Positions 722 to 42,636 of a stretch of 49,013 nucleotides of DNA are shown piece after piece. Every line of letters begins with the position of its first letter. The first letter of the stretch is position 1. Origin of the DNA: a virus. The DNA lies in UHGV virus genome UHGV-0069399. One strand, given 5' to 3'. The notes under the pieces are model-generated. The model was not told where the DNA came from. It did no database searches and saw only the letters and a program-made list of their open reading frames with translations. The position numbers and the translations under genes were made by a program.

Positions 722-999
722 CGTACGAAGCGACAGAGAAAAACATCTGCTTTGAGCGAAAAGTGGCAGTTGAAGACAATCATGAACGATCTATGACTCG
801 ATATTTACTTAATTCACTGTTATTCAAAGGGTTAAGTAAAAAAATATTATCTGTCACCTCAGTGCAATGCAATCTAAGGTTTCAAAGAACCCCCCTTTGA
901 GTACACCGTAAGTTTTAAAATGTGAGGTAAGTTGATTTTACATATTTTCTAATGCATTATCATACGTCCCTTAAAATAAATCATATTACTGAGAAAAAA

Positions 1000-2022
1000 A
1001 TGTCCAACATTAATTTATTCGATGATGTAGTGCCTTTAGAAAAACAACATCCAATATATACAATGATGAAAGAAGAACGCTACAAACCGGAGAGAGATGT
1101 AATTAATCAATGGGCAAAAGGATTTCAAGACCGAGACAATAAATTTGCTAAAGAATTTCAAACAAGTTTTGAACCTTGCCTATGGGAATTATATCTTTTT
1201 GCCTATCTGAAAGAATTAGGCTTAAGGAGCGACTTTTCATACGACGCTCCTGACTTCGTCGTCAATGATCCAGATTTTTGCATTGAGGCAACTATTGCAC
1301 TTCCAGCACAAGGAGACCTTGGGGCGCATGGTTTCAGTAAGGAAGATATGCCGAGAGATTTTAATAAATTTAATTCTGAAGCATCTATTCGACTTAGTAA
1401 TAGCTTTATATCAAAGGTTAAAAAATTAAGATCGAGATATTCTCTACTTCCTCAATGTAAAGAAAAACCTTTTGTAATCGCCATAGCTTCATTCGACAGA
1501 CCTTTTGCACACTTTGCAGCAGCTAGGCCCATACTTGCAACATTATATGGCCTATACCATGATGAAGAAGCAACCATTGAATCAGGGTCAAAGAGTATAA
1601 TTTCTTATAACGTCGATGCTGCAGTAAAAAAAGAAAATGTTAATATAGACATGGGGTTATTCTGCACACCTGAATATTCGGATGTAAGTGCTGTGATTTA
1701 TAGTAGTTTAGCTACTTGGGGAAAAGTAAGAGCCCTTGCGGACAACCCTTCTGCTCTAACGATTTATACATCATTTACTCCAAAGGAAAACTCATTATTT
1801 CCTGAAGTTCATCAAGCCTTAAAAAGTGATTATGTAGAACATCTAGCGGATGGGTTATATATTTTACACAACCCATTTGCCAAGCATCCATTGCCTAAAG
1901 AGACACTAAGTCATCCAAGAATAGCGCAAGGTTATATTGAGCCAGATGGATACGTTAATTTTATAGCGCCAGATGATTTTCTTTTATTGCGTTTTTTACA
2001 ATCGTTAAATTTGAAAGAGTAG
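1000..2022 (+). CDS. hypothetical protein, AT-rich islet gene A (~340 aa)
   Basis: Long ORF in markedly AT-rich DNA. ATG at 1000 (MSNINLFDD) preferred over the ORF-track start at 952, which has no RBS. No family recognised by eye. Confidence 0.6.
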   Translation: MSNINLFDDVVPLEKQHPIYTMMKEERYKPERDVINQWAKGFQDRDNKFAKEFQTSFEPCLWELYLFAYLKELGLRSDFSYDAPDFVVNDPDFCIEATIALPAQGDLGAHGFSKEDMPRDFNKFNSEASIRLSNSFISKVKKLRSRYSLLPQCKEKPFVIAIASFDRPFAHFAAARPILATLYGLYHDEEATIESGSKSIISYNVDAAVKKENVNIDMGLFCTPEYSDVSAVIYSSLATWGKVRALADNPSALTIYTSFTPKENSLFPEVHQALKSDYVEHLADGLYILHNPFAKHPLPKETLSHPRIAQGYIEPDGYVNFIAPDDFLLLRFLQSLNLKE

Positions 2023-2256
2023 TAATTATGGTCACATCTAATTACTTTACATAGATACCCACTAGAAAGGGGACTTTTCTTAAAACTCAGCCGTCAAAGA
2101 TTTAGAGTGGTTATCTACTGGTATGCTTCCGAATCTGCCAGTGCGGCTGAGTGGATTTCTAGTACCCTCTAGAAGATTTAGTTGATTAAAACAGGTCATG
2201 TATCATCTTCAGAGTCAACATATCGCCAACTGTCTATCATTCCATTGAGGAAAAGT

Positions 2257-3030
2257 ATGTCATCAGAAAATTTTGTCACCTTCTGGCTCGCTAGAGCCGA
2301 TCTTCCATACTTTCTTGAACCTCATGAATTTTACGTTTCGGAGGCCAAGCGTAGACTTCTATCGCAGTTTGGCGATTTAGAACAAGAAGCAGAAAGGAGG
2401 GAACAACAGTATTTGGAAGCTACCTCAAAATATTTCGATCCTGATAACGATGATCCAATGGCTGCCTACGAGCAAGCCTACCACGTGGGAATTAATTATG
2501 TATGGTCGCTTCTGGAGATGCAAAATACCGTGTTGTTGGCATTAACGGCAGGAATGTACCACCAGTTTGATAAAAAACTAAGAGAACACACCATCAAAGA
2601 ACTAAGTAACTGGTGCAAAAGAGAATTAATTACTCCCATGATCTGGAATATAACTTTCCATCAGCTTATTGATTTACTCGAATGGATTGGCCTCAAAATC
2701 AATGGAACCGGATACGGAGAGAGGATCAAAGCCTGTAACTTGGTAGTAAACGTATACAAGCATGGGGACGGGCCTGCGCATCAAACACTATCATTCAATC
2801 ATCCTGAGTACTATCAACACCCTACCGATGTTCGAGGTACGCAGAACATACATGACCATGATGATTTACATGTATCAGAAGAGCAATTTGTAGAGTTTGC
2901 TGACGCAATAACTGAATTCTGGAAAGCAGTTCCAGAGAATTGCTATTACTCAGATCTCAAAGAAGAACCCAAATGGTTGAGTAAAGTCGTAACAAAATTC
3001 GATAAAAAACAGAAGGGAAATAGGGACTAA
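2257..3030 (+). CDS. hypothetical protein, AT-rich islet gene B (~257 aa)
   Basis: ORF in AT-rich DNA; ATG at 2257 (MSSENFVTF) is preceded by GAGGAAAA at RBS spacing. No family recognised. Confidence 0.6.
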   Translation: MSSENFVTFWLARADLPYFLEPHEFYVSEAKRRLLSQFGDLEQEAERREQQYLEATSKYFDPDNDDPMAAYEQAYHVGINYVWSLLEMQNTVLLALTAGMYHQFDKKLREHTIKELSNWCKRELITPMIWNITFHQLIDLLEWIGLKINGTGYGERIKACNLVVNVYKHGDGPAHQTLSFNHPEYYQHPTDVRGTQNIHDHDDLHVSEEQFVEFADAITEFWKAVPENCYYSDLKEEPKWLSKVVTKFDKKQKGNRD

Positions 3031-3138
3031 TTACCCATCTCAAAACATCAAGTTTGCAGTGCCCTGCTCCCCGTTTATTAGTATGGAAGTTAACAATGTC
3101 TGCTTCTGACACATAACAGCCCTTAAGATGGTAACTCG

Positions 3139-3188
3139 CCGTCATGGGGTGTCGGGGGTCGGAGGTTCAAATCCTCTCGTGCCGACCA
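3139..3188 (+). other. 3' ~50 nt of a tRNA-Pro-like gene (anticodon arm through T-arm, acceptor 3' strand and ACCA); 5' half absent - integration-junction (att core) remnant
   Basis: GGTCGGAGGTTCAAATCCTCTCGTGCCGACCA is a canonical tRNA T-arm plus acceptor 3' strand plus discriminator A plus CCA, resembling enterobacterial tRNA-Pro. The complementary 5' acceptor strand (CGGCACG) is not present upstream, so this is not an intact gene. Confidence 0.6.
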
Positions 3189-3201
3189 AAAATCCTCGAA
3201 G

Positions 3202-3229
3202 AACCAGCCTGTTACGGCTGGTTTTTTTA
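3202..3229 (+). terminator. rho-independent terminator directly after the tRNA fragment
   Basis: AACCAGCC-tgttac-GGCTGGTT hairpin followed by a run of 7 T. Confidence 0.6.
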
Positions 3230-3318
3230 TGCCTGTTTTCTGAACGGGGAAGCAACGGGGAATAATTGGGGAAAAACCCCGACACAAAACATCGACTTTA
3301 CCGTAAAGTTTCAGCTAT

Positions 3319-3708
3319 TCACATCACTGGGCAGTCATCAAACTCCGCGTTCCTGGCATCATTAATGATGTACGTGATAACACCAAATATTGCGTGTGAA
3401 GAATTATAGCCATCACCGTCTTCTGGCAGCACTTCTCTTCTCCCGTTCTCCAGATTTATCAGGTGGGGCTGAGGGTGAGTTCGGTATCGCTTGATCCTGA
3501 ATTCCCCATCTATCGCGCATATCAGCAGCGAGCCATCACAGGCTGAAAGCGACGCGTCCACAACAAGTAGTGCCCCCTGGATTATCCCTTCCCTGAAATG
3601 TGAACACGATGCCCGCATGAAATAAGTCGCTGCGGGCTGGCTGATTAGCTGTTGATCGAGGGAAATCCTTGTTTCAACGTAATCACTGGCAGGTGAAGGG
3701 AAGCCCAT
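3319..3708 (-). CDS. UmuD'-like protein (LexA/S24-fold, begins at the cleavage-site Gly; catalytic Ser apparently replaced)
   Basis: Translation from ATG 3708 (MGFPSPASDYVE...ATYF...LLVVD...IDGEFRIKR) aligns along its length with E. coli UmuD from Gly25 (GFPSPAADYVEQ...), as recalled from memory. GGAGG RBS 8 nt upstream of this ATG; ATG lies 2 nt after the stop of the upstream small ORF. The ORF-track start at 3807 would overlap that ORF by ~97 nt. Confidence 0.7.
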   Translation of the reverse strand: MGFPSPASDYVETRISLDQQLISQPAATYFMRASCSHFREGIIQGALLVVDASLSACDGSLLICAIDGEFRIKRYRTHPQPHLINLENGRREVLPEDGDGYNSSHAIFGVITYIINDARNAEFDDCPVM

Positions 3709-3710
3709 GG

Positions 3711-3953
3711 CTATAGTCCTCCGTTTGGATTGAAAAGCTGAAAGGTACGGTTCTCCCCTTCCTGCGTTGATACATCGCGGAATGATGTCACATACCACTC
3801 GATCCATTCGTTAGCCTGCTTCATCGTCCAGTTCCAGTTAACCTTGCTCAGTTCCTGGACAAACCGCTGTGTGGTGACGGTCTTCCGGCCATTAGGTTCT
3901 TGCTGTATCGAAGCATGCCAGGCCATTTCAATATCGCTGCGTCGTGGCATCAA
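3711..3953 (-). CDS. hypothetical small protein (80 aa), first gene of the LexA-boxed operon; candidate SOS-induced regulator/antirepressor
   Basis: GAGGGG RBS ~7 nt upstream of ATG 3953; LexA box 40 nt upstream; tightly coupled to the downstream UmuD'-like gene. No family recognised. Confidence 0.5.
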   Translation of the reverse strand: MMPRRSDIEMAWHASIQQEPNGRKTVTTQRFVQELSKVNWNWTMKQANEWIEWYVTSFRDVSTQEGENRTFQLFNPNGGL

Positions 3954-3992
3954 TTAACCCCTCTTGAATACCGGATAAAAACACAGTATAAA

Positions 3993-4012
3993 TACTGTAT
4001 ATCCATCCAGTA
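3993..4012. promoter_or_regulatory. LexA box (SOS operator) in the divergent promoter region
   Basis: TACTGTATATCCATCCAGTA matches the enterobacterial consensus TACTG-N10-CAGTA. It lies between the DinI-like gene (+) and the small-ORF/UmuD'-like operon (-). A second, imperfect box (CGG instead of CAG half-site) lies at 3973-3992. Confidence 0.7.
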
Positions 4013-4028
4013 AAGATGACTACAAGAA

Positions 4029-4271
4029 ATGTTCGTGGAACTCGTTTATGACAAAAGGAATTTTGATGGGCTGCCTGGTGCAAAAGATATCATTCTGGGC
4101 GAATTGACCAAGAGGGTTCACCGGATCTTCCCCGATGCTGATGTTCGGGTTAAACCGATGATGACACTGCCGGCGATCAACACTGACGCCAGCAAGCATG
4201 AGAAGGAACAGATAAGCCGTACTGTTCAGGAAATGTTTGAAGAAGCTGATATGTGGCTGGTTTCAGATTAA
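4029..4271 (+). CDS. dinI: DinI-like DNA-damage-inducible protein
   Basis: 80 aa; aligns with E. coli DinI, including the acidic C-terminal EEADMWLVSD motif; consensus LexA box 16 bp upstream. Confidence 0.8.
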   Translation: MFVELVYDKRNFDGLPGAKDIILGELTKRVHRIFPDADVRVKPMMTLPAINTDASKHEKEQISRTVQEMFEEADMWLVSD

Positions 4272-6362: not shown

Positions 6363-7037
6363 TTAATCATATGCAGCTGTGTTTATCGCCGTTATCACAA
6401 TTCCACTATTTGTCGTACCGATTGAAGAGCCGCTTGCTGTTGTTGATGTAAGTCCTTTTATTCTCGTTCCCGCACCTTCATTGAAGCAACCTGTACCCAC
6501 ATCCACAGACTGAATGATTGGCTGTCCACCAGGTGCCGAACCAGCATGAAGGAGAACAGATCCCAGCCCCATCGGATTTATGGCCCATTTGCCTGCCATG
6601 TATGTATCAATGTTAAGCCCACCACTTACAGCACCTGGTGAACCAATAGTTGTAAGGTCGCTTAATACCCGGGACTCATTCGTAAGTACCAGTGTCCCTT
6701 CGGCATCCCATATAGCCACCCCCCAGGCAGGAAGCGTAAGCGGATATATGGCAAAAAAATAGGCCTCAAGGACAAAAGCCGATCCCCTGTAATTAGACGC
6801 ATTAACACTGAACGTATTGCCACTTTTTGAAGCTGATATCTTCGCCGGGGCGCTGGTTCGTGCAAATGCAATCCCTCCCTTCTGACCGTCGATAGTAACA
6901 GACGCCGAAACACTGTTAAAATTCCCCCCAAAAGTTGAGTTTACAGTGACTTTCCGGTAAAGCGTCATTGGTGTGGAATCAGGCGTGATAAAAGGGTTCC
7001 CGTTAGGTAATGAAATCAATGCGCCATATTTAGCCAT
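6363..7037 (-). CDS. hypothetical tail-associated protein (224 aa) downstream of J
   Basis: Tightly packed after the 104-aa ORF and J; Gly/Ser/Thr-rich, fibre-like composition. Confidence 0.6.
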   Translation of the reverse strand: MAKYGALISLPNGNPFITPDSTPMTLYRKVTVNSTFGGNFNSVSASVTIDGQKGGIAFARTSAPAKISASKSGNTFSVNASNYRGSAFVLEAYFFAIYPLTLPAWGVAIWDAEGTLVLTNESRVLSDLTTIGSPGAVSGGLNIDTYMAGKWAINPMGLGSVLLHAGSAPGGQPIIQSVDVGTGCFNEGAGTRIKGLTSTTASGSSIGTTNSGIVITAINTAAYD

Positions 7038-7352
7038 CTACGCAGTCTCCGCAAAAACGATTAACTGCACTTTGACTGCCGGGTAATCATTAATCCCATC
7101 ACTACCTGAAGGCTGTATTGTTATGGTGTTTCCAGATGCAATAATATTTCTTTTATCTGTGTAACTTATTGTCCCTTTATCCTCCAGAGTACCAACCGCA
7201 AAACCGACCTTTAAACCGGGCTCGAGGTTGAACTGGTAGCTTCCCGTTTTCTGACCTAAAGCAAGATCGATGATTCCCACCACGGTTACAGGTTTAATGC
7301 CATAGTTATTCGGGACACCGTTAGCGTCCCATGTCTGAATTCCCCATGTCAT
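7038..7352 (-). CDS. hypothetical tail-associated protein (104 aa) downstream of J
   Basis: Start abuts the J stop; same strand and operon. Confidence 0.6.
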   Translation of the reverse strand: MTWGIQTWDANGVPNNYGIKPVTVVGIIDLALGQKTGSYQFNLEPGLKVGFAVGTLEDKGTISYTDKRNIIASGNTITIQPSGSDGINDYPAVKVQLIVFAETA

Positions 7353-10300
7353 CAGAATACCCCTGTTAATTTGCCAATCTGCACGCGGAGAACGCCATTG
7401 CCATCTTTAACGCTGTAATTCAGATTGGTCATTTTCGTTGCCCCCTCCCCGGCAACAGCCCCATTCATTTCAAACGTTCCGTCTGATTTCATAATGGTGC
7501 CTGTTTGTCCCTGAACATAATTAGCGGAGCGCAGTTCGCCAATTTTTGCCAGAGTGATTTGACTATACTGAATAAAAGCATCGCTGATAAACACCTGACC
7601 ATTAATAGAAGCAAACGGAGAATATTGTGTATCACCGCTGCCACTCATCAGGACGAACTGATTGGCGTTAAAGCCGACACGGGTGACTACCGGCTTACCC
7701 GCTTCGGCCAGCACGGCAATCGACATCCCGGCGTTATACATCACACCGTTTATTCGAACTCCGGTTTTAAGAGTGTAAATTGCAGATGCCCCGGTCGCAT
7801 CAACCACGGCGGTGAGCTTATCTTCCAGCGCGGCAGTCACATCATTGAACTGCGCCTGCACCTGCGTCGACATTTCAGCCATGGCTTTATCGACCTGCGC
7901 AATGGTCGTTTTAACCACCAGAATATCCGCGCGTACCTCGCCGTACTGCGCCCACTGGTGTTCCACGGTTGCATGGTTGGCCAGCGCGTTCTGCAATGCG
8001 GCTTCGAGATTGGTATCAATGTCGCCAGTCAGGCGGTCACCGTCGGCAGATGTCAGGAAGTCATCAGCAATATCGCCCAGGTAGTCGTCAGCATTCGCAT
8101 TAGATTCACCACGAACCCAGTCGGTCCAGTCACTCTGATTACCAATGCGATCAACCAGACGAGCCCGGTACCAGAACTCCTGACCTGCCTTCAAACCCAG
8201 TTGGGTATATGTGTGTTGAGGATACGGAACTCCTGCAAGCAGCAGAGGATTATCCCCATTTCCGTTTGCTGAATACTGCAGTTCGGTCTGGAGAGTATCA
8301 CCTGTATCCGCCGGAAAGGACCAGTCAGCCTGTATGCCCCAGTTGATTGCTGTGGTGCGCAGACCAACCGGCTTGGGAACATCCCCAGTACGTCCAGTGA
8401 GATGAGTCAGCACAGAAGAGGTCCACAAACTGGACGCTCCACCAGAGTTAATGGCGCGGACTCTCACGAGGTAATCGCCTGAGAAAATCCCGGCGATCTC
8501 TATATTGCGCAAGCCTGTTTCGGGAATGTTGATCCACTCATTATCACCACGTTTCCACTGTGCCTGATACGCGACAATATCCGCCTGAGGTTTCCCGTTT
8601 TTATCTACTGGCGCATCCCAACTCGCAACCATGGTTGCAATACGCTGCCCCTGCCGGACCGAGTCGTAACTGCTAATCGCGATATTCGTGGGCTGGCTAA
8701 CCAGGCCTATCGGTAACAGACTAATCGGCGGCGTATCCAGCCGGGCGTTGTTATCAACGGCATCGTACTTAGCCCCGTTGTACTCTGCACCGGTGATACT
8801 GTAGGTGTTCTCTTCATCGTTAAATGTCAGATTGGTTACACGGAAATACTGGAGGCGCAACTGGCCTGCATCGATAACAAAAATGGCATTAGGTTGTGGC
8901 TCAGCGGTAAAGGCAGTAGCCAGTATCAGTTGCTGGCCGTTAACCGCCTGAATGGTTCTGCTCTCAACGGTACCGCCCAGGGTACGAATCATCAGCGTAT
9001 CACCCGCCACCGCACTCGTGCCGCGATCGGTAGTTACTGACTTCAACCCTGCATCGTAATCAGTAATACGTCCACCATAGACACGCCCAGACAGCCGCTC
9101 ATCTGCAAACGCAAATACGGTCCCCGGCACATAAGCGAAGCCATCGAGTCCCGTCTGGACAGTGATAATACGGTCCAGAGAATTGGAGTACACTGCCCAA
9201 CCACCCCGGCGCTGAGCTTCGCTTTCACGTGTGCAGCCAATCGCGGTTAGCTGAGTCTGCTTAAACTTGAACTGCTTAACCAGATCGGGAAACATCACTG
9301 CAGTAGTGCGATCCTGATAGTGGTTATCCGGGTCACTAAAGTTAATCAGCGCTGAGCTATAGCGATTCTTTTCACTGCCGCTGGAATAGGTTGGTTTCCC
9401 GACCACAGAGGCACGGGTGAGGATCTGAAGTTTTGACGTATCCGCAGGCATATCAGAGACAACATTGAACATGTTGTTGCCCCAGAAAGTCATTCCGTTG
9501 AAGCCCGCGGCAATATCTTTAATCACCTGCCAGGCATCAGCCTGGGACTGGATGTAAACGTCAAACATGAAGCGTGGCTCGGTAACGCTTCCGCCTTTCC
9601 CGTCGGGTACCTTCTGGTCGCAGCGCTGGGCGATGCGATAGAGCTCCCACTTATCGAGCATTTCTGGCGTCACGCGGCGCCCAAGACCGAAGCGCGGCTC
9701 AGTCACAACATCGAACCAAATCCACGCCGGGTTATTCGTCCAGCCCCATTTAAACGTCCCGTCCCATGTTCCGCTATAAGTCCGCGCTATTGGATCATAG
9801 TTCGAAGGGATTCGGATGATGCGCCCCTTCGGCATGCAGGAAATCTTAGGGATGTTGTTGAATGACTTTGCGTTAAAGGACACGTACAGCAGCGCTGTGT
9901 GTGGATATCGTAGGCGAGCATCGATCACCTCAGTAATCGCTTGCACCTGCGTTTTGTTCTGCAGCATCTGGCTGGTGCTGTCATCGGTGTCACGCACCAC
10001 TCGAATTTGCCAGCCAGTGCTGGCTTTGGGAAGATTAATACGGTGGGTTAGTTCATAGAGCGAACTGAGCTTCTCTGTGACGGTTTTAGTCATGACTGTC
10101 GAGTAAGCGCCACCGTCCACCGCAAGGTCAATATGGTACTGAACCGTGGTGCCGACAATATCCCCATCGTTTTCCTGCTGCTGTAACCCAGGGATGCCAA
10201 TACGAACCAGCACCGCGTCAATCTGGGTGTTACTCAGTGCGCGGGTCCATGGTGTGGCCTTTGTCAGCGATACGCCAACCGTAGTTTCATTCTCGACTGC

Positions 10301-13267: not shown

Positions 13268-14881
13268 ATGAATATTGTGCATTATGCAGCCATTGGAGCT
13301 GTAGCTTTCGTAGTTGTTCTAACAATTTTGGTGATAAACATCATTAAATTAAAGTCAGCCAAGGCTGATGCAGCAGAAAAGGCGGCAAAACTTGAGCGTT
13401 ACGCGTCAATCACCAATGCTGAAACAGAAGCTGAACGAATCGTGAATGCAGCTAAGCAAACCGCAGAAGAGTTAATTATTGATTCGCAGAATAACCTTGA
13501 CGAGGCAAAAGCTGAAGCAGCCAACACTATTGCAGCCAGTGAAAAAGATGCAAGATCTATAACACAGCGTGCGGAGGATATTCTATCAGATGCGCGTTTA
13601 GCAGCTAAGCGAATGAACGCAGAGGCGCTGACCGCTGTAGAAACACAAAGAGTCAAGCGTGCAGAAATTGAAAAACAGATTGATGAATTGCGTAAATCCT
13701 ATCGTGAGAAAAAAATCACTTACGATGAGCTGACGGAAGCCCTGTCAATTTATAAAGATGATATGGAATTTGCTGACATGGGGTTCTATGCACCACACTT
13801 CGATTTTGATACCTCGGCTAGTTTTCAGGATGCGATCAAGGCATGTCGCGAACGGCAAAAAAATCTGCTACGTGACAAAACTGAATTTGGCGCAATACAT
13901 TGCCCTACTGAATGGACGGTTGGCGGCTCTAAAAGTGAAGGTCGGAAAATGACCACTCGCGGCATTCAGATGACAGCACGTGCATTCAATGGTGAGTGTG
14001 ATGCAGCTATTGCAAACTGCACATTTAAAAACGTTTATCAAATGGAGCAAAGAATTTATAAAGCCTTTGATGCCTTGAATAAGATGAATGAGGTTAACCA
14101 GATTTACATCAATCGTGCTTTTTTAGATTTGAAGCTGGATGAACTTCGACTTACACATGAATATCGTTTGAAAAAACAAGAAGAACGAGAAGAACAACGT
14201 GAAATCCGCGCTCAGATGGCTGAGGAGAAGCGAGCTCAAGCCGAAATTGATCGTGCACTTCGAGAGGCTGAAGATGAAGAACGCCGCGCCCAAAAAGCGT
14301 TGGATAAAGCCCGAAAAGAAATGGAATCGAAGCTAGCCCAAATGACAGCTGAGCAAGTTGAGAAACACCAAGCGAAGGTATCCGAATTAGAACATGCCTT
14401 AGAAGAGGCATTGTTGAAAGGCCAAAAAGCTCTTTCTATGGCTCAACAAACTAAACGCGGCCACGTGTACGTTATCTCTAATATTGGTTCGTTTGGTGAT
14501 GATGTTTTTAAAATAGGAATGACACGTCGACTTGACCCTCAAGATCGAGTGGATGAACTGGGTAGTGCATCAGTCCCATTCCTGTTCGATGTTCATGCAA
14601 TGATTTTCAGTGAAGATGCACCAACAATGGAAAACATGCTCCACCAGCGTTTCAATGAGCAACGCACTAACCTAGTTAATAAGCGTAAAGAGTTTTTCAA
14701 TGTAAAATTAAGCGATATCAAAGATGCTGTGTTTGAGATCGCAGGTAAAGATGTAGATTTTATCGAAACAGCAACTGCTCAGCATTATTATGAAACAAAG
14801 GCAATTCGTAAGCAGAAAGCGGATATCATTTCAGTTGTTCCTCAAGAGGAAAAACTACCTAAATTTGCGGACGCAATATAA
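13268..14881 (+). CDS. membrane-anchored coiled-coil protein with DUF4041-like core and C-terminal T5orf172 (MUG113, GIY-YIG-like) domain; inserted accessory gene
   Basis: 537 aa on the opposite strand to the flanking tail genes. N-terminal hydrophobic helix (AAIGAVAFVVVLTILVINII), long charged coiled-coil stretches, C-terminal GHVYVISNIGSFGDDVFKIGMTRRLDPQDRVDELG...FNVKLSDIKDAV matching the T5orf172 signature. Own AT-rich promoter region and terminator. Confidence 0.85.
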   Translation: MNIVHYAAIGAVAFVVVLTILVINIIKLKSAKADAAEKAAKLERYASITNAETEAERIVNAAKQTAEELIIDSQNNLDEAKAEAANTIAASEKDARSITQRAEDILSDARLAAKRMNAEALTAVETQRVKRAEIEKQIDELRKSYREKKITYDELTEALSIYKDDMEFADMGFYAPHFDFDTSASFQDAIKACRERQKNLLRDKTEFGAIHCPTEWTVGGSKSEGRKMTTRGIQMTARAFNGECDAAIANCTFKNVYQMEQRIYKAFDALNKMNEVNQIYINRAFLDLKLDELRLTHEYRLKKQEEREEQREIRAQMAEEKRAQAEIDRALREAEDEERRAQKALDKARKEMESKLAQMTAEQVEKHQAKVSELEHALEEALLKGQKALSMAQQTKRGHVYVISNIGSFGDDVFKIGMTRRLDPQDRVDELGSASVPFLFDVHAMIFSEDAPTMENMLHQRFNEQRTNLVNKRKEFFNVKLSDIKDAVFEIAGKDVDFIETATAQHYYETKAIRKQKADIISVVPQEEKLPKFADAI

Positions 14882-37529: not shown

Positions 37530-37763
37530 CTAATAAAACCAGTCGTCAGCGCTTTCCCAGGTATCCTGGAGGATTGATTCAATTTTCTTTTTATCGTCCT
37601 TGTCACCGCCAAAAACACTTAACCCATCCGACCCGGCACGGCGGATTGTGAGCCTGCAATTGTCATAGTGATCATTCAGGCGCTTAAGCAATTCTTTCTC
37701 CAGTGCAGGAACCGCGCCTTTAGGAAGTTCTTTCATACGATCAATGGTTAATTCAACTTTCAT
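37530..37763 (-). CDS. dinI: DinI-like protein (second copy)
   Basis: From ATG 37763, MKVELTIDRMKELPKGAVPALEKELLKRL...SDGLSVFGGDKDDKKKIESILQDTWESADDWFY aligns with E. coli DinI; GGAGG RBS; LexA box just upstream. Confidence 0.8.
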   Translation of the reverse strand: MKVELTIDRMKELPKGAVPALEKELLKRLNDHYDNCRLTIRRAGSDGLSVFGGDKDDKKKIESILQDTWESADDWFY

Positions 37764-38070: not shown

Positions 38071-38331
38071 TCATTGTTTCTTCTCGTTCTGGGCTGCCAT
38101 ATCCAGATAGCGCGGGTCGGATGCTCTCGGTAATGTCAGACTTTGCTCGCGATAGTAGCGCACACGCTCCATGAAGTATTCGCGGAGATGCTCTGGCTGA
38201 TCACGGGCTTCCTGTTCAGCGATAACCGGCATGTTCAGGCGCTCTTTGTCCGCTACTCCGGATGCTGCAAAGTCAACGTTAACCTTGTCCTGCTCTTCTT
38301 TCGGCTTGGCTGCAATGTTATGGTTGGACAT
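38071..38331 (-). CDS. hypothetical protein (86 aa)
   Basis: ORF with terminator downstream; acidic; no family recognised. Confidence 0.5.
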   Translation of the reverse strand: MSNHNIAAKPKEEQDKVNVDFAASGVADKERLNMPVIAEQEARDQPEHLREYFMERVRYYREQSLTLPRASDPRYLDMAAQNEKKQ

Positions 38332-38421: not shown

Positions 38422-38826
38422 TTACTTTAATTTATATATTAAACAATCCACAATATCCAAACCATTAACCATACTATTTGAAAGTCGAACTTTGCTATTT
38501 TCAATAGAGAATGCTCCTTTCATCATTTTATAAATAAAAGCAGACTCTCCTTTAGCTTCGATTGCTTCAAGTGGTATGGAATGGTATTTATTTGATCTAT
38601 TATCTCTATTGATTTGACTTATAAGGCTATAAACGAATGTAGGCCCTTTCTCCTCAAGATCACTTATTACCAAAATATATTTCCAAGAAAACATTTCCCC
38701 ATAAAAAAACCACATGGCAGCGGATAAAGCTACTCCTTTCTTCTCTAACTCTTTCATTAGAAATTGGCCAGAATTTTCCATAGAGGTCGTCATTGAGTGA
38801 CCTATTACCAGTGACTTCTTACCCAT
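38422..38826 (-). CDS. hypothetical protein (134 aa), downstream partner of the HEPN-like gene; possible degenerate minimal nucleotidyltransferase
   Basis: Very AT-rich; start overlaps the HEPN-like gene's 3' end by ~22 nt; contains a G-E-x11-S-D-L-E stretch loosely resembling the MNT G[SG]-x9-13-DxD motif. Confidence 0.6.
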   Translation of the reverse strand: MGKKSLVIGHSMTTSMENSGQFLMKELEKKGVALSAAMWFFYGEMFSWKYILVISDLEEKGPTFVYSLISQINRDNRSNKYHSIPLEAIEAKGESAFIYKMMKGAFSIENSKVRLSNSMVNGLDIVDCLIYKLK

Positions 38827-39227
38827 TGCAAAACTCCAGATTGATTATTCTCAGCTGCTTCGATGAGCTGCTCCGCCATAGCCCGACTGATAGTAGTTTC
38901 GTAGCGGAGTTGTTCACTCCAATCCTTCATAACAGTCCAAAATATTTCAAACTGCCCATCCTGGGCAGCTAATTGTCTATGTGATAGTTGTAGGCTCGCC
39001 ACCTGCATGAGCTTTGTTAGATCATGAACATGTGAGTCCATGGCTAACTTCTTGTCAGGAAATTGAAATGCCGTCACATTTTTTGCTATACATGCTTTAA
39101 GAGCGCACTCAACTGCGTATCCGCAGAGGTAGTATGCACCATGATATAATCCATTCTGTAACAGACATTTTGCTTCCGTTAACCTTATACCAGTTAAAAC
39201 TTCTAGGTCAGATTTATTCATTTGCAA
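38805..39227 (-). CDS. HEPN-like domain protein (140 aa)
   Basis: GAYYLCGYAVECALKACIAK ... HDLTKL ... RYETT pattern resembles HEPN-superfamily helices; AT-rich; first gene of an overlapping pair. Confidence 0.6.
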   Translation of the reverse strand: MQMNKSDLEVLTGIRLTEAKCLLQNGLYHGAYYLCGYAVECALKACIAKNVTAFQFPDKKLAMDSHVHDLTKLMQVASLQLSHRQLAAQDGQFEIFWTVMKDWSEQLRYETTISRAMAEQLIEAAENNQSGVLQWVRSHW

Positions 39228-39339: not shown

Positions 39340-39792
39340 CTAAATGATGTGAAGGCGCGGCTCCCCGTTTTTCGGCTCAGGCCACTGACGCTGCTTATTC
39401 ACCGCCAACTTTTCTACCATCGCCTGGTTAATCTGCTCGTCACTGATACCGGCACGACGTTGCGCATCCCATAACAGGAATTGCATGTCAGCCCATTCGC
39501 TAAGGTCGCCTGGTTCAGCAGCAGCCTCGAGTGCTTCTTTGGAAAGGTGCTTCAGCGGACCAACTGGACCGACATCGCCGAAAGTAGCCAGTGACCACGC
39601 TGCATGTTCACGGCGTACTTGTTCGCGGGCCATCGACTCCAGAACCCCATTAAACACCTTCACAGCATCAGCCATTGCGTAGCCGAGATTGCCGCCGTCG
39701 CTTTGTGCTGCTGCTTTGCTGAGTATTTCTCTTATCTGGTGCAGGCGATTGAGTGATACAGGACCGTTCGCCGGGTGGTTGTTAGTGGTCAT
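39340..39792 (-). CDS. MazG-like/DUF550-type nucleotide pyrophosphohydrolase (putative)
   Basis: Start chosen at MTTNNHP; HLSKEALEAAAEPGDLSEWADMQFLLWDAQRRAGIS resembles prophage dATP/dGTP pyrophosphohydrolase-like proteins. Moderate confidence. Confidence 0.5.
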   Translation of the reverse strand: MTTNNHPANGPVSLNRLHQIREILSKAAAQSDGGNLGYAMADAVKVFNGVLESMAREQVRREHAAWSLATFGDVGPVGPLKHLSKEALEAAAEPGDLSEWADMQFLLWDAQRRAGISDEQINQAMVEKLAVNKQRQWPEPKNGEPRLHII

Positions 39793-40100
39793 ACTGATGC
39801 TCTCCCGTAAAATGCCAGAACCCGCTTCATCGCCGGACTTGTACGGCATACTGAAGTAACCATGTTTTTTCTCATGTTCGATTTGATCTGCTTGATATTC
39901 AGTTCCCCGCCTAGTTGCAGCGAATAGACCGGGTGATGTGGCTCCCCAGCGCGAATAACTACTGCCCTACGTACCAGGTGAAGCAGCAGGTTGTGTGCTT
40001 TCTTGCAGTCGCATCCCAGCAGGTTCTGAACCTGACGCGGGGTTATGGTCTGGTTAACCCGAAGGAAATCGACAATTGCCCACAGTGATTTGCTTGCCAT
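39789..40100 (-). CDS. hypothetical small protein (103 aa), probably DNA-binding
   Basis: Basic small ORF between the DnaC-like and MazG-like genes, same operon. Confidence 0.45.
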   Translation of the reverse strand: MASKSLWAIVDFLRVNQTITPRQVQNLLGCDCKKAHNLLLHLVRRAVVIRAGEPHHPVYSLQLGGELNIKQIKSNMRKNMVTSVCRTSPAMKRVLAFYGRASV

Positions 40101-41866: not shown

Positions 41867-42406
41867 TCATACAACCCCCAGCATCAACTGCACCATCTCC
41901 ATCAGCGGACCGGTTAAGCCAGGGTCAACGCGGTACATCTCCACGATCCCCTCGCTCAGCTCTTTCAGCTTCTGATGACGCGGCGCATCCATTGCGACAG
42001 CTATCTTCGCTTCGCTGGTTTCCTTCTCCATACGTGCCAGGCGAGCCATGATGTTGTCTTCTGGCAGCAGGCGGTTGCGGTATTCAATCGGCAGAACTGC
42101 GAGGATTGCGGGAGTCAGCTGGCGAACGTTCTCGCGGTACCGCTCGCTGTTGAAATGGTTATCGAGGAAGCGGAAAAGCTTCTGGCGCTTTCGGCAGAGA
42201 TCATCAGGGAAAGTGATGTCGTCACCACCCTGCGCCTGGTACTCTTCGATGATCAGAGCAGTAACTACGTCCTGACCATCAGCACCAGCCCAGGAGCGAA
42301 CCGCATCACGAATATCTTCGTGGCTCGGCCCCCTGCGTGCTTGAGCGCGATTTATCATTACCCCTTGAGTAATATCGCTATCATTCTGATAAGTAAGTGT
42401 CTGCAT
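41867..42406 (-). CDS. YdaT-like protein (cII-position regulator)
   Basis: 179 aa between the cro-like and O-like genes; LIIEEYQAQGG and LTPAILAVLPIEYRNRLL resemble Rac YdaT as recalled. Confidence 0.55.
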   Translation of the reverse strand: MQTLTYQNDSDITQGVMINRAQARRGPSHEDIRDAVRSWAGADGQDVVTALIIEEYQAQGGDDITFPDDLCRKRQKLFRFLDNHFNSERYRENVRQLTPAILAVLPIEYRNRLLPEDNIMARLARMEKETSEAKIAVAMDAPRHQKLKELSEGIVEMYRVDPGLTGPLMEMVQLMLGVV

Positions 42407-42417
42407 GATTAAGCCTC

Positions 42418-42636
42418 CTAACGTGGCAAACCATCTGTTGGGTTTGGGTAAATATCACTACGGACCTCATGCGGAGTGATTTTCCAATCGAGTAAACGGC
42501 AAATTGGAAGCACGCGGTGCGCAGGAACCTCGTGGTTTAACCAAAGGCTGACCGCTTGAGACGTAGTGCCAAGATTTTTCGCTATTTCTGTTTGCGTCAT
42601 AACCGCACAAACACGTTGTTTAATGGAATTTGTCAT
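42418..42636 (-). CDS. Cro/YdaS-like HTH regulator
   Basis: 72 aa from ATG 42636 with GAGGG RBS; HTH QTEIAKNLGTTSQAVSLWL; divergent from the repressor gene. Confidence 0.75.
   Translation of the reverse strand: MTNSIKQRVCAVMTQTEIAKNLGTTSQAVSLWLNHEVPAHRVLPICRLLDWKITPHEVRSDIYPNPTDGLPR

Follow-up and report, generated by a model that had tools for sequence, protein, structure and literature searches.

Two unrelated single-gene cassettes, one matching PD-T7-5, occupy an AT-rich islet beside a relic tRNA-Pro core of a Rac-like prophage

The virus genome UHGV-0069399, a stretch of 49,013 nucleotides that was analyzed as a whole and is referred to here as the window, carries near its left end an AT-rich islet (positions 760-3060) with two adjacent genes, designated A and B. 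Genes A and B are two unrelated single-gene cassettes and not a pair. Judged by its profile match, gene A is a member of the PD-T7-5 family, and because it is a homologue of PD-T7-5 the islet can be regarded as defence-type prophage cargo. Gene A is of a kind already known; gene B is an uncatalogued candidate that is worth a direct test. The explanation that we consider probable is that the islet is the variable cargo region of a prophage, a mosaic of independent single-gene cassettes in which A is a PD-T7-5-type gene and B would be a latent defence effector. Resolving the apparent operon into two cassettes also guards against reporting a false two-gene system. The source contig is metagenomic, and the contigs with the same gene arrangement are from human gut metagenomes.

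Genes A and B are separate cassettes

Gene A is an open reading frame (ORF) on the + strand at 1000-2022 (340 aa), with a longer open reading from 952 to 2022 that yields 356 aa. Gene B is a + strand ORF at 2257-3030 (257 aa) and has the sequence GAGGAA 5 nt upstream of its ATG. An earlier note on this DNA had described both ORFs on the same strand, a good ribosome-binding site for gene B and a break toward AT-rich composition, and all of these are found. The windowed GC content that the note had called for is 0.375 for the islet (0.363 for gene A and 0.408 for gene B), compared with 0.506 for the adjoining SRAP gene and 0.509 for the remaining window, and the islet is the lowest in GC of all 2.3-kb windows (mean 0.504, standard deviation 0.046).

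The two genes had also been read as an operon, and this part of the earlier description was overturned by the distribution of their homologues. In tblastn searches, gene A was absent within 8 kb of B in 109 of 109 B loci, and gene B was absent within 6 kb of A in 54 of 54 A loci. The DNA module that carries gene A (cassette A, 746-2198, + strand) is 92.5% identical over 746-2198 to the viral contig L136 and 86.5% identical over 908-2198 to the Escherichia coli locus L001, and in both cases the homology stops at 2198. The module that follows (cassette B, 2189-3059, + strand) contains gene B only and shares 84-87% DNA identity with seven loci (L002-L004, L097, L009, L017 and L098), which include a P7-type C1 repressor/ParM-like contig as well as viral and metagenomic contigs; the shared stretch begins at 2189-2238 and ends at 3002-3059. 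The two cassettes meet within 10 nt, and each occurs separately elsewhere.

The cassette junction (2189-2198) lies within the A-B spacer (2023-2256, + strand, 234 nt), which has nested inverted repeats at 2052-2068/2101-2117 and 2085-2093/2144-2152. Inverted repeats had been reported in this gap by the earlier note, and they are indeed present; the spacer folds modestly better than its shuffles (minimum free energy -44.3 kcal/mol, z -1.83). Both L001 and L136 share the repeats, which therefore belong to cassette A. No intrinsic terminator or consensus promoter scored in the spacer. In scans of the DNA around the two genes, promoters and terminators were no more numerous than in shuffled sequence, and so these scans do not establish expression signals for either gene.

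Gene A matches the PD-T7-5 family

The earlier note had found nothing recognizable in gene A. A scan of defence profiles gave a different answer, in that the PADLOC model for PD-T7-5 (PDLC04110) matched gene A end to end (E 3.9e-102), with residues 20-351 of the 356-aa reading aligned to model positions 1-340 of 346. The second-best PADLOC match was PD-T7-1 (E 1.9e-51, positions 99-436 of 452), which indicates a core domain common to PD-T7-1 and PD-T7-5; however, the PD-T7-1 model is longer by about 100 positions at its N-terminus, and its match is far weaker than that of PD-T7-5. Gene A has no match in Pfam or NCBIfam, and the public names are either 'hypothetical protein' or 'glycosaminoglycan attachment site', the latter being uninformative.

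A functional selection yielded PD-T7-5 from E. coli UMB0934 as a single validated coding sequence annotated as a nuclease (Vassallo et al. 2022, PMC9519451), and a review places it among the PD-(D/E)xK proteins (PMC10952713). Gene A shares with PD-T7-5 the full-length model match and the status of a single autonomous gene in mobile DNA, and its structural model suggests the PD-(D/E)xK-type fold under which PD-T7-5 is listed. The two differ in that the cloned PD-T7-5 ORF spans 1,174 nt and gene A 1,023 nt, and in that the host here is not E. coli, because the core flank has no megablast match. Homologues of gene A are solitary in E. coli and in 54 viral loci, where they occur without B or SRAP. 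An E. coli homologue that is 90% identical to gene A stands alone in an island, and in L136 cassette A is on the strand opposite the flanking ORFs.

The AlphaFold 2 model of gene A is confident, with a mean predicted local distance difference test score (pLDDT) of 90.9. The N-terminal half of the model superposes on PD-(D/E)xK toxins and restriction enzymes, and the C-terminal half is beta-rich. Residues D85 and E96 are invariant. Gene A is probably an autonomous anti-phage gene that acts as a nuclease, and the predicted fold together with the published phenotype of PD-T7-5 suggests that its target may be incoming phage DNA. In itself gene A is routine, being another prophage-borne copy of a catalogued defence gene.

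Family, conserved residues and predicted fold of gene B

Gene B and 65 of its relatives have no match in Pfam, NCBIfam or PADLOC, and a profile search of the PDB gave no sequence match for gene B. Its sole library match is PHROG 19541, a group of unknown function. The family comprised 73 clusters in a word-indexed search and at least 1,360 clusters at 50% identity in a full profile search, of which 213 were below E 1e-30. Across 190 representatives the motif NxxKHGxG is near-invariant, with N165 conserved in 189, K168 in 189, H169 in all 190, G170 in 187 and G172 in 188, and R109, K106, H102 and R33 are each conserved in 87-93%.

The AlphaFold 2 model of gene B is also confident (pLDDT 90.7, predicted template modelling score 0.86) and almost wholly helical, and it contains a four-helix up-down bundle of the HEPN type. 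A Foldseek comparison of the model with the PDB gave no significant match, and hhalign assigned a probability of 0.2% to a relationship with Abi_2 and 0.75% to one with a PF05168 family that was assembled starting from the HEPN gene of the window. In the V-N-V-Y-K-H segment of gene B, the Asn-x3-His spacing is that of the RNxxxH motif in neighbouring Abi_2 genes. The motif has no arginine 4-6 residues ahead of the histidine, and the arginine at R161, which is present in only 124 of the 190, is 8 residues before it. As modelled, gene B is HEPN-like in fold yet lacks the Rx4-6H motif by which HEPN proteins are defined. The NxxKHGxG motif and R109, K106 and H102 most likely form a catalytic or phosphate-binding site.

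When compared with HEPN toxins and abortive-infection (Abi) RNases, including HepT/DUF86 proteins such as SO_3166, Abi_2/AbiD, PrrC, RnlA and Csm6, gene B is without the motif arginine, has an invariant lysine (K168), and gave no sign of similarity to a HEPN family in either sequence or profile comparisons. Unlike the minimal HEPN toxins, it is about twice their size and is accompanied by no MNT-type antitoxin or other partner. A likeness between gene B and the N-terminal part of the T5orf172 neighbours described below was tested, and there was no resemblance.

A few relatives have unusual architectures. Protein P0248 (340 aa) joins residues 1-185 of B to T5orf172/MUG113, and protein P0307 (323 aa) joins residues 1-143 of B, a segment without the NVYKHG motif, to DUF2971; each is either a candidate fusion or an artefact of assembly or frameshift. 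The viral contig L120 has a full-length gene of the B family at 9024-9782 and, about 1.3 kb upstream, a second copy that appears to be split (6957-7232 and 7388-7714).

Genomic neighbourhoods of gene B

The 109 B loci fall into two groups by identity to gene B of the window. The 28 relatives at 44% identity or more are all solitary, and none has an MmeI, helicase or T5orf172 neighbour. The other 81 loci are more distant. In 47 of them an MmeI-family restriction/methyltransferase gene precedes B on the same strand (median gap 45 nt), and in 43 the genes downstream encode a superfamily 2 (SF2) helicase with a median length of 687 aa and a T5orf172 protein with a median length of 409 aa. The operon-type relatives account for 43-47 of the 109 loci, and they are 34-42% identical to the B protein of the window. 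The resulting four-gene arrangement, MmeI-family/B-like/SF2 helicase/T5orf172, is found within L028-L096 (e.g., L042 at 3345-4037 and L090 at 8001-8699), and its hosts are diverse Proteobacteria and a few other metagenome-assembled genomes. The B-like and T5orf172 genes of this arrangement match no PADLOC model. An Abi_2/PD-T4-5-like gene is present in 10 B loci and stands directly after B in 9 of them.

No such MmeI/helicase/T5orf172 operon surrounds gene B in the window. The 62 B loci outside MmeI-type operons have no conserved neighbour in common, and no conserved adjacent partner of B was found; the cassette consists of the ORF and 20-70 nt on each side. Close relatives of B are found in lambdoid prophages, either near the Q/nin region or beside tail genes, and also on the P7-type C1 repressor/ParM-like contig, on 124 plasmids and in small islets. 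The solitary relatives are usually on the strand opposite their neighbours. Their immediate neighbours include GajA of Gabija (two), methyl-directed restriction enzymes (two), AbiEii, Tad2-like genes (three) and integrases (three). The Tad2-like (anti-Thoeris) gene at 8936-9520 of L002 lies directly downstream of a close B relative and on the opposite strand, and the same placement is seen in L098 and L099.

Gene order ties gene B to restriction-like systems of the YeeABC type, which are poorly understood and of disputed function. YeeA (DnmA), YeeB and YeeC have been proposed to be a restriction-like set consisting of an MmeI-like methyltransferase without the nuclease motif, a DEAD helicase and a GIY-YIG/T5orf172 protein (Morgan et al. 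2009, PMC2731913). Another study cites work in V. crassostreae that reported an effect on phage sensitivity, and it points to an uncharacterized family that could also belong to the locus in certain bacteria (PMC9973331). The same trio, in the same order and on the same strand, surrounds a B-like gene in 47 of the 109 loci. In contrast, the window contains no gene of the trio, and in the B. subtilis cluster dnmA and yeeB are not separated by a B-like gene.

A relic tRNA-Pro core and an exchangeable cargo slot

The end of gene B is separated by 108 nt from a 3' fragment of tRNA-Pro(GGG) at 3139-3188 (+ strand, 50 nt), which is identical to tRNA positions 28-77, including the CCA. The final 25 nt of the fragment occur once in the window, compared with an expectation of 0. 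Neither ARAGORN nor Rfam found a complete tRNA in the window or the contig flanks, and there was no Rfam family either; 3139-3188 is therefore a fragment. It is part of a relic attachment region (3085-3280, + strand, 196 nt) that is common to related prophages. This region is 86% identical to an internal site of the ssrA-linked prophage of E. coli ATCC 11775, located between a GIY-YIG cargo gene and dinI, and positions 3129-3277 are 92% identical to the junction between tRNA-Pro and a prophage in E. coli 100181. The cargo region of ATCC 11775 also has a hypothetical gene of 262 aa, which was examined as a possible homologue of B and is not one. Immediately past the fragment is an intrinsic terminator with a hairpin and T-run (3202-3229, + strand), which forms a 12-bp stem in the fold of 3031-3240 and is the only strong terminator 3' of gene B.

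A protein look-up found the identical UmuD-like protein in ten further loci. In the prophages that carry it, 98.4% DNA identity to the window extends between 4300 and either 3138 or 3144 and stops there (L126-L135, around 8391-8570 in the related loci). The identity breakpoint coincides with the 5' edge of the tRNA fragment, at the edge of the anticodon stem/loop. Past the breakpoint, five of the ten loci have AbiTii and three have a DUF4236 gene, and the combination of B, A and SRAP is found only in the two copies of this lineage. Chromosomal genes lie directly beyond the cargo in several of the ten. The tRNA fragment is a relic attachment core inside the prophage, at the breakpoint between a conserved backbone and variable cargo. 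Presumably, the ancestral phage attached at tRNA-Pro and the core was kept next to umuD/dinI, in which case everything between the relic core and the present end of the phage would be exchangeable cargo.

The relic core, recognizable by the pattern ATGGGGTGTCGGGGGTCGGAGGTTCAAATCC followed by a umuD-like gene, marks the exact point at which cargo is swapped (AbiTii, DUF4236, or PD-T7-5 plus B) and offers an anchor for mining cargo genes. Rousset et al. in 2022 reportedly described defence hotspots of temperate phages and their satellites in which variable cargo lies beside the attachment site, as in P2/P4-like elements. The slot described here resembles those hotspots in having one fixed position in near-identical backbones, with alternative cargo that includes AbiTii and PD-T7-5. 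It differs from them in that its border is a relic tRNA-Pro attachment (att) core, apparently no longer used by the present integrase, and in that the prophage is lambdoid and Rac-like.

The gene order of the contig is trpA ... ompW-yciC-yciB-yciA-tonB-yciI, SRAP, A, B, the tRNA fragment, the UmuD-like gene, DinI and lambdoid tail genes. The prophage terminates in an integrase, beyond which the contig stops within an ORF that has a ClsA-like N-terminus; relatives that share this integrase have yciY and clsA at the corresponding position. The earlier note had taken the fragment for a tRNA integration junction. It was right to see a recombination junction, with a tRNA 3' fragment, adjoining the islet, but the site itself is not a tRNA gene locus, since its flanks are yciI and the start of the ClsA-like ORF. 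A 12-nt direct repeat, TAGGTACACATT, occurs twice, at 12775-12786 of L122 and at 9021-9032 of L008, where it lies between yciI and SRAP and 28 nt to the left of the first window position. The right copy is 5 nt outside the integrase ATG and the left copy is inside a hairpin. About 0.3 matches of this kind are expected by chance, and the repeat is a weak candidate for the present att core. Relaxed searches for att repeats returned A/T-rich matches only, and the predicted empty site did not turn up when metagenome contigs were scanned for it.

Possible roles of the islet and of gene B

How might such an islet serve the prophage? In the explanation that we consider probable, the islet would occupy the tail-fibre end of a Rac-like lambdoid prophage, between the relic tRNA-Pro core and the chromosome. 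Gene A would be expressed from the lysogen, and its product would attack incoming phage DNA as a nuclease. Gene B would be a second, separate defence effector that is latent in the lysogen; upon sensing infection, it would cleave RNA and bring about abortive infection. The B relatives in MmeI/helicase/T5orf172 operons may have the same role as a restriction-linked back-up, much as PrrC does in type I loci. To the fold, conservation, mobility and gene neighbourhoods of gene B described above, this explanation adds RNase activity, latency, a trigger and an anti-phage effect, all by analogy with PrrC and other restriction-embedded HEPN proteins.

The earlier note had proposed that the islet is defence cargo and an undescribed system. 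Foreign composition, the placement in prophage cargo and the homology of gene A to PD-T7-5 bear out the first part of this proposal, whereas the second is not supported for the islet as a whole. The idea of a new defence is limited to gene B alone, because gene B is uncharacterized, and it is reasonable to leave it standing there as a candidate. As such, gene B is concrete and cheaply tested: it is one gene of 257 aa, offers well-defined residues to target and comes from a large family missed by current defence catalogues. A more far-reaching possibility, which we put forward only tentatively, is that the B family is an unrecognized immune module with a derived HEPN-type site, in which NxxKHGxG replaces Rx4-6H. 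Such a module might act as a solo Abi gene on prophages and plasmids and, in Proteobacteria, as an integral fourth part of MmeI-type systems, where it might serve either as a suicide back-up once restriction has been blocked or as a sensor that licenses the nuclease.

Several points weigh against the explanation of the islet as a mosaic of defence cassettes. For gene A, the position of the lysine in the D...ExK motif is occupied by threonine (E96-A-T98), and no published mechanism for PD-T7-5 was found in the literature. For gene B, no phenotype is known, no consensus promoter scored upstream, and V/T164 takes the position of the arginine in Rx4-6H. Since B has no antitoxin or partner, a constitutively toxic RNase is unlikely and self-restraint must be assumed. 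In B. subtilis the YeeABC cluster did not protect against phage (PMC9973331), and three solitary B relatives adjoin a Tad2-like anti-defence gene. Finally, because the searches for the att site of the prophage gave only a weak candidate, the placement of SRAP, A and B within the prophage is inferred from its relatives.

Other arrangements of the islet can be envisaged. Genes A and B might form one two-gene defence system, with A as the nuclease effector and B as a sensor or regulator, as their adjacency on the same strand, their shared AT-richness and the recurrence of the arrangement in five contigs would suggest. We regard this as barely credible, as the five contigs, all with an identical SRAP protein and gene order, point to one lineage; moreover, the genes do not co-occur in any of the 109 B or 54 A loci, the cassette boundaries meet within a 234-nt spacer, and PD-T7-5 works as one cloned gene. 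Alternatively, the islet might be the remnant of a small genomic island at a tRNA-Pro gene and separate from the prophage. This would account for a tRNA 3' fragment that is shaped like an att core, from anticodon stem to CCA, for the varied cargo joined at the anticodon-stem/loop position across genomes, and for the end of a related prophage at an intact tRNA-Pro in E. coli 100181. An intact tRNA, a direct repeat of its 3' part and an integrase would be expected of a tRNA island, but the window and contig flanks have one fragment and lack both a tRNA gene and another copy of the core, there is no integrase on the islet side, and the flanks are yciI and, past the integrase, the ClsA-like ORF start. 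In addition, relatives have a single cargo gene past the core and then chromosomal genes directly, an order that prophage cargo fits better, and a separate island seems very unlikely.

Gene B itself may have a role other than defence. One possibility is that it is a phage counter-defence gene, a captured or mimicking accessory subunit of MmeI-type systems that poisons or blinds those of the host. Solitary copies on phages, prophages and plasmids are in keeping with this idea, as are the three copies directly beside a Tad2-like anti-Thoeris gene, and homologues that are integral to host restriction-like operons are the relation expected of a subunit mimic. However, the putative active-site residues are equally conserved in solitary and operon copies, which is unusual for a decoy; solitary copies are mostly opposite the flanking phage genes, like morons expressed from lysogens and not like early lytic genes; and the equivalent slot in related prophages holds AbiTii. 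Together these make counter-defence unlikely. Another possibility, one that we likewise consider unlikely, is that gene B is a non-catalytic helical adaptor or regulator, such as a nucleotide or ligand sensor or a scaffold, with a role in lysogenic conversion or regulation that need not involve defence. The invariant N/K/H/G cluster and the conserved R, K and H on neighbouring helices in the 190 representatives are more suggestive of an enzyme or of tight ligand binding, and the family is maintained as a lone mobile gene across many unrelated elements, both of which argue against an adaptor. A latent defence effector in a mosaic of independent cassettes continues to be the explanation of gene B that we prefer.

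The SRAP gene and other features of the prophage

The gene to the left of cassette A encodes a SRAP (YedK-like) protein (50-721, + strand; Pfam SRAP E 2e-50), and its DNA homology extends over 14-706. The earlier note had considered that this gene might be part of the system. Instead, SRAP is absent from all of the A and B loci examined. At the DNA level the gene shares 88-90% identity with E. coli SRAP genes whose neighbours are prophage tail genes or SOS-type genes, and it was matched in only 57 of 5426 E. coli genomes. Of the two E. coli SRAP loci examined, one adjoins an intact tRNA-Pro (L015) and the other adjoins yecD (L016). A look-up of the exact SRAP protein returned five contigs, all with the same gene arrangement, and is uninformative on variation. 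From these comparisons, the SRAP gene behaves as phage cargo and as an independent module, rather than as core yedK.

On the other side of the islet, the first gene of the conserved prophage backbone encodes the UmuD-like S24 peptidase (3319-3708, - strand; Pfam Peptidase_S24), followed by a 79-aa ORF and then DinI at 4029-4271. The content of the prophage is Rac-like, with RecE/RecT, YdaS/YdaT and O/DnaC-type replication genes. A homologue of PD-Lambda-1 (13268-14881, + strand, 537 aa; PADLOC E 5e-201) is low in GC and on the strand opposite the surrounding tail genes. With this gene and the PD-T7-5 homologue, the prophage bears at least two catalogued single-gene defences.

Further to the right, the Rac-like immunity region has a YdaS/YdaT-type pair at 41867-42636 (- strand), and there is a second DinI-like gene at 37530-37763. 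A low-GC patch contains the window's HEPN-domain gene mentioned above (38805-39227, - strand, 139 aa), which is assigned to PF05168 in its relatives and matches PADLOC PDC-M28A with E 3e-09. Its neighbours at 39340-39849 and 38071-38331 are dATP/dGTP pyrophosphohydrolase-like and DNA polymerase III theta-like genes.

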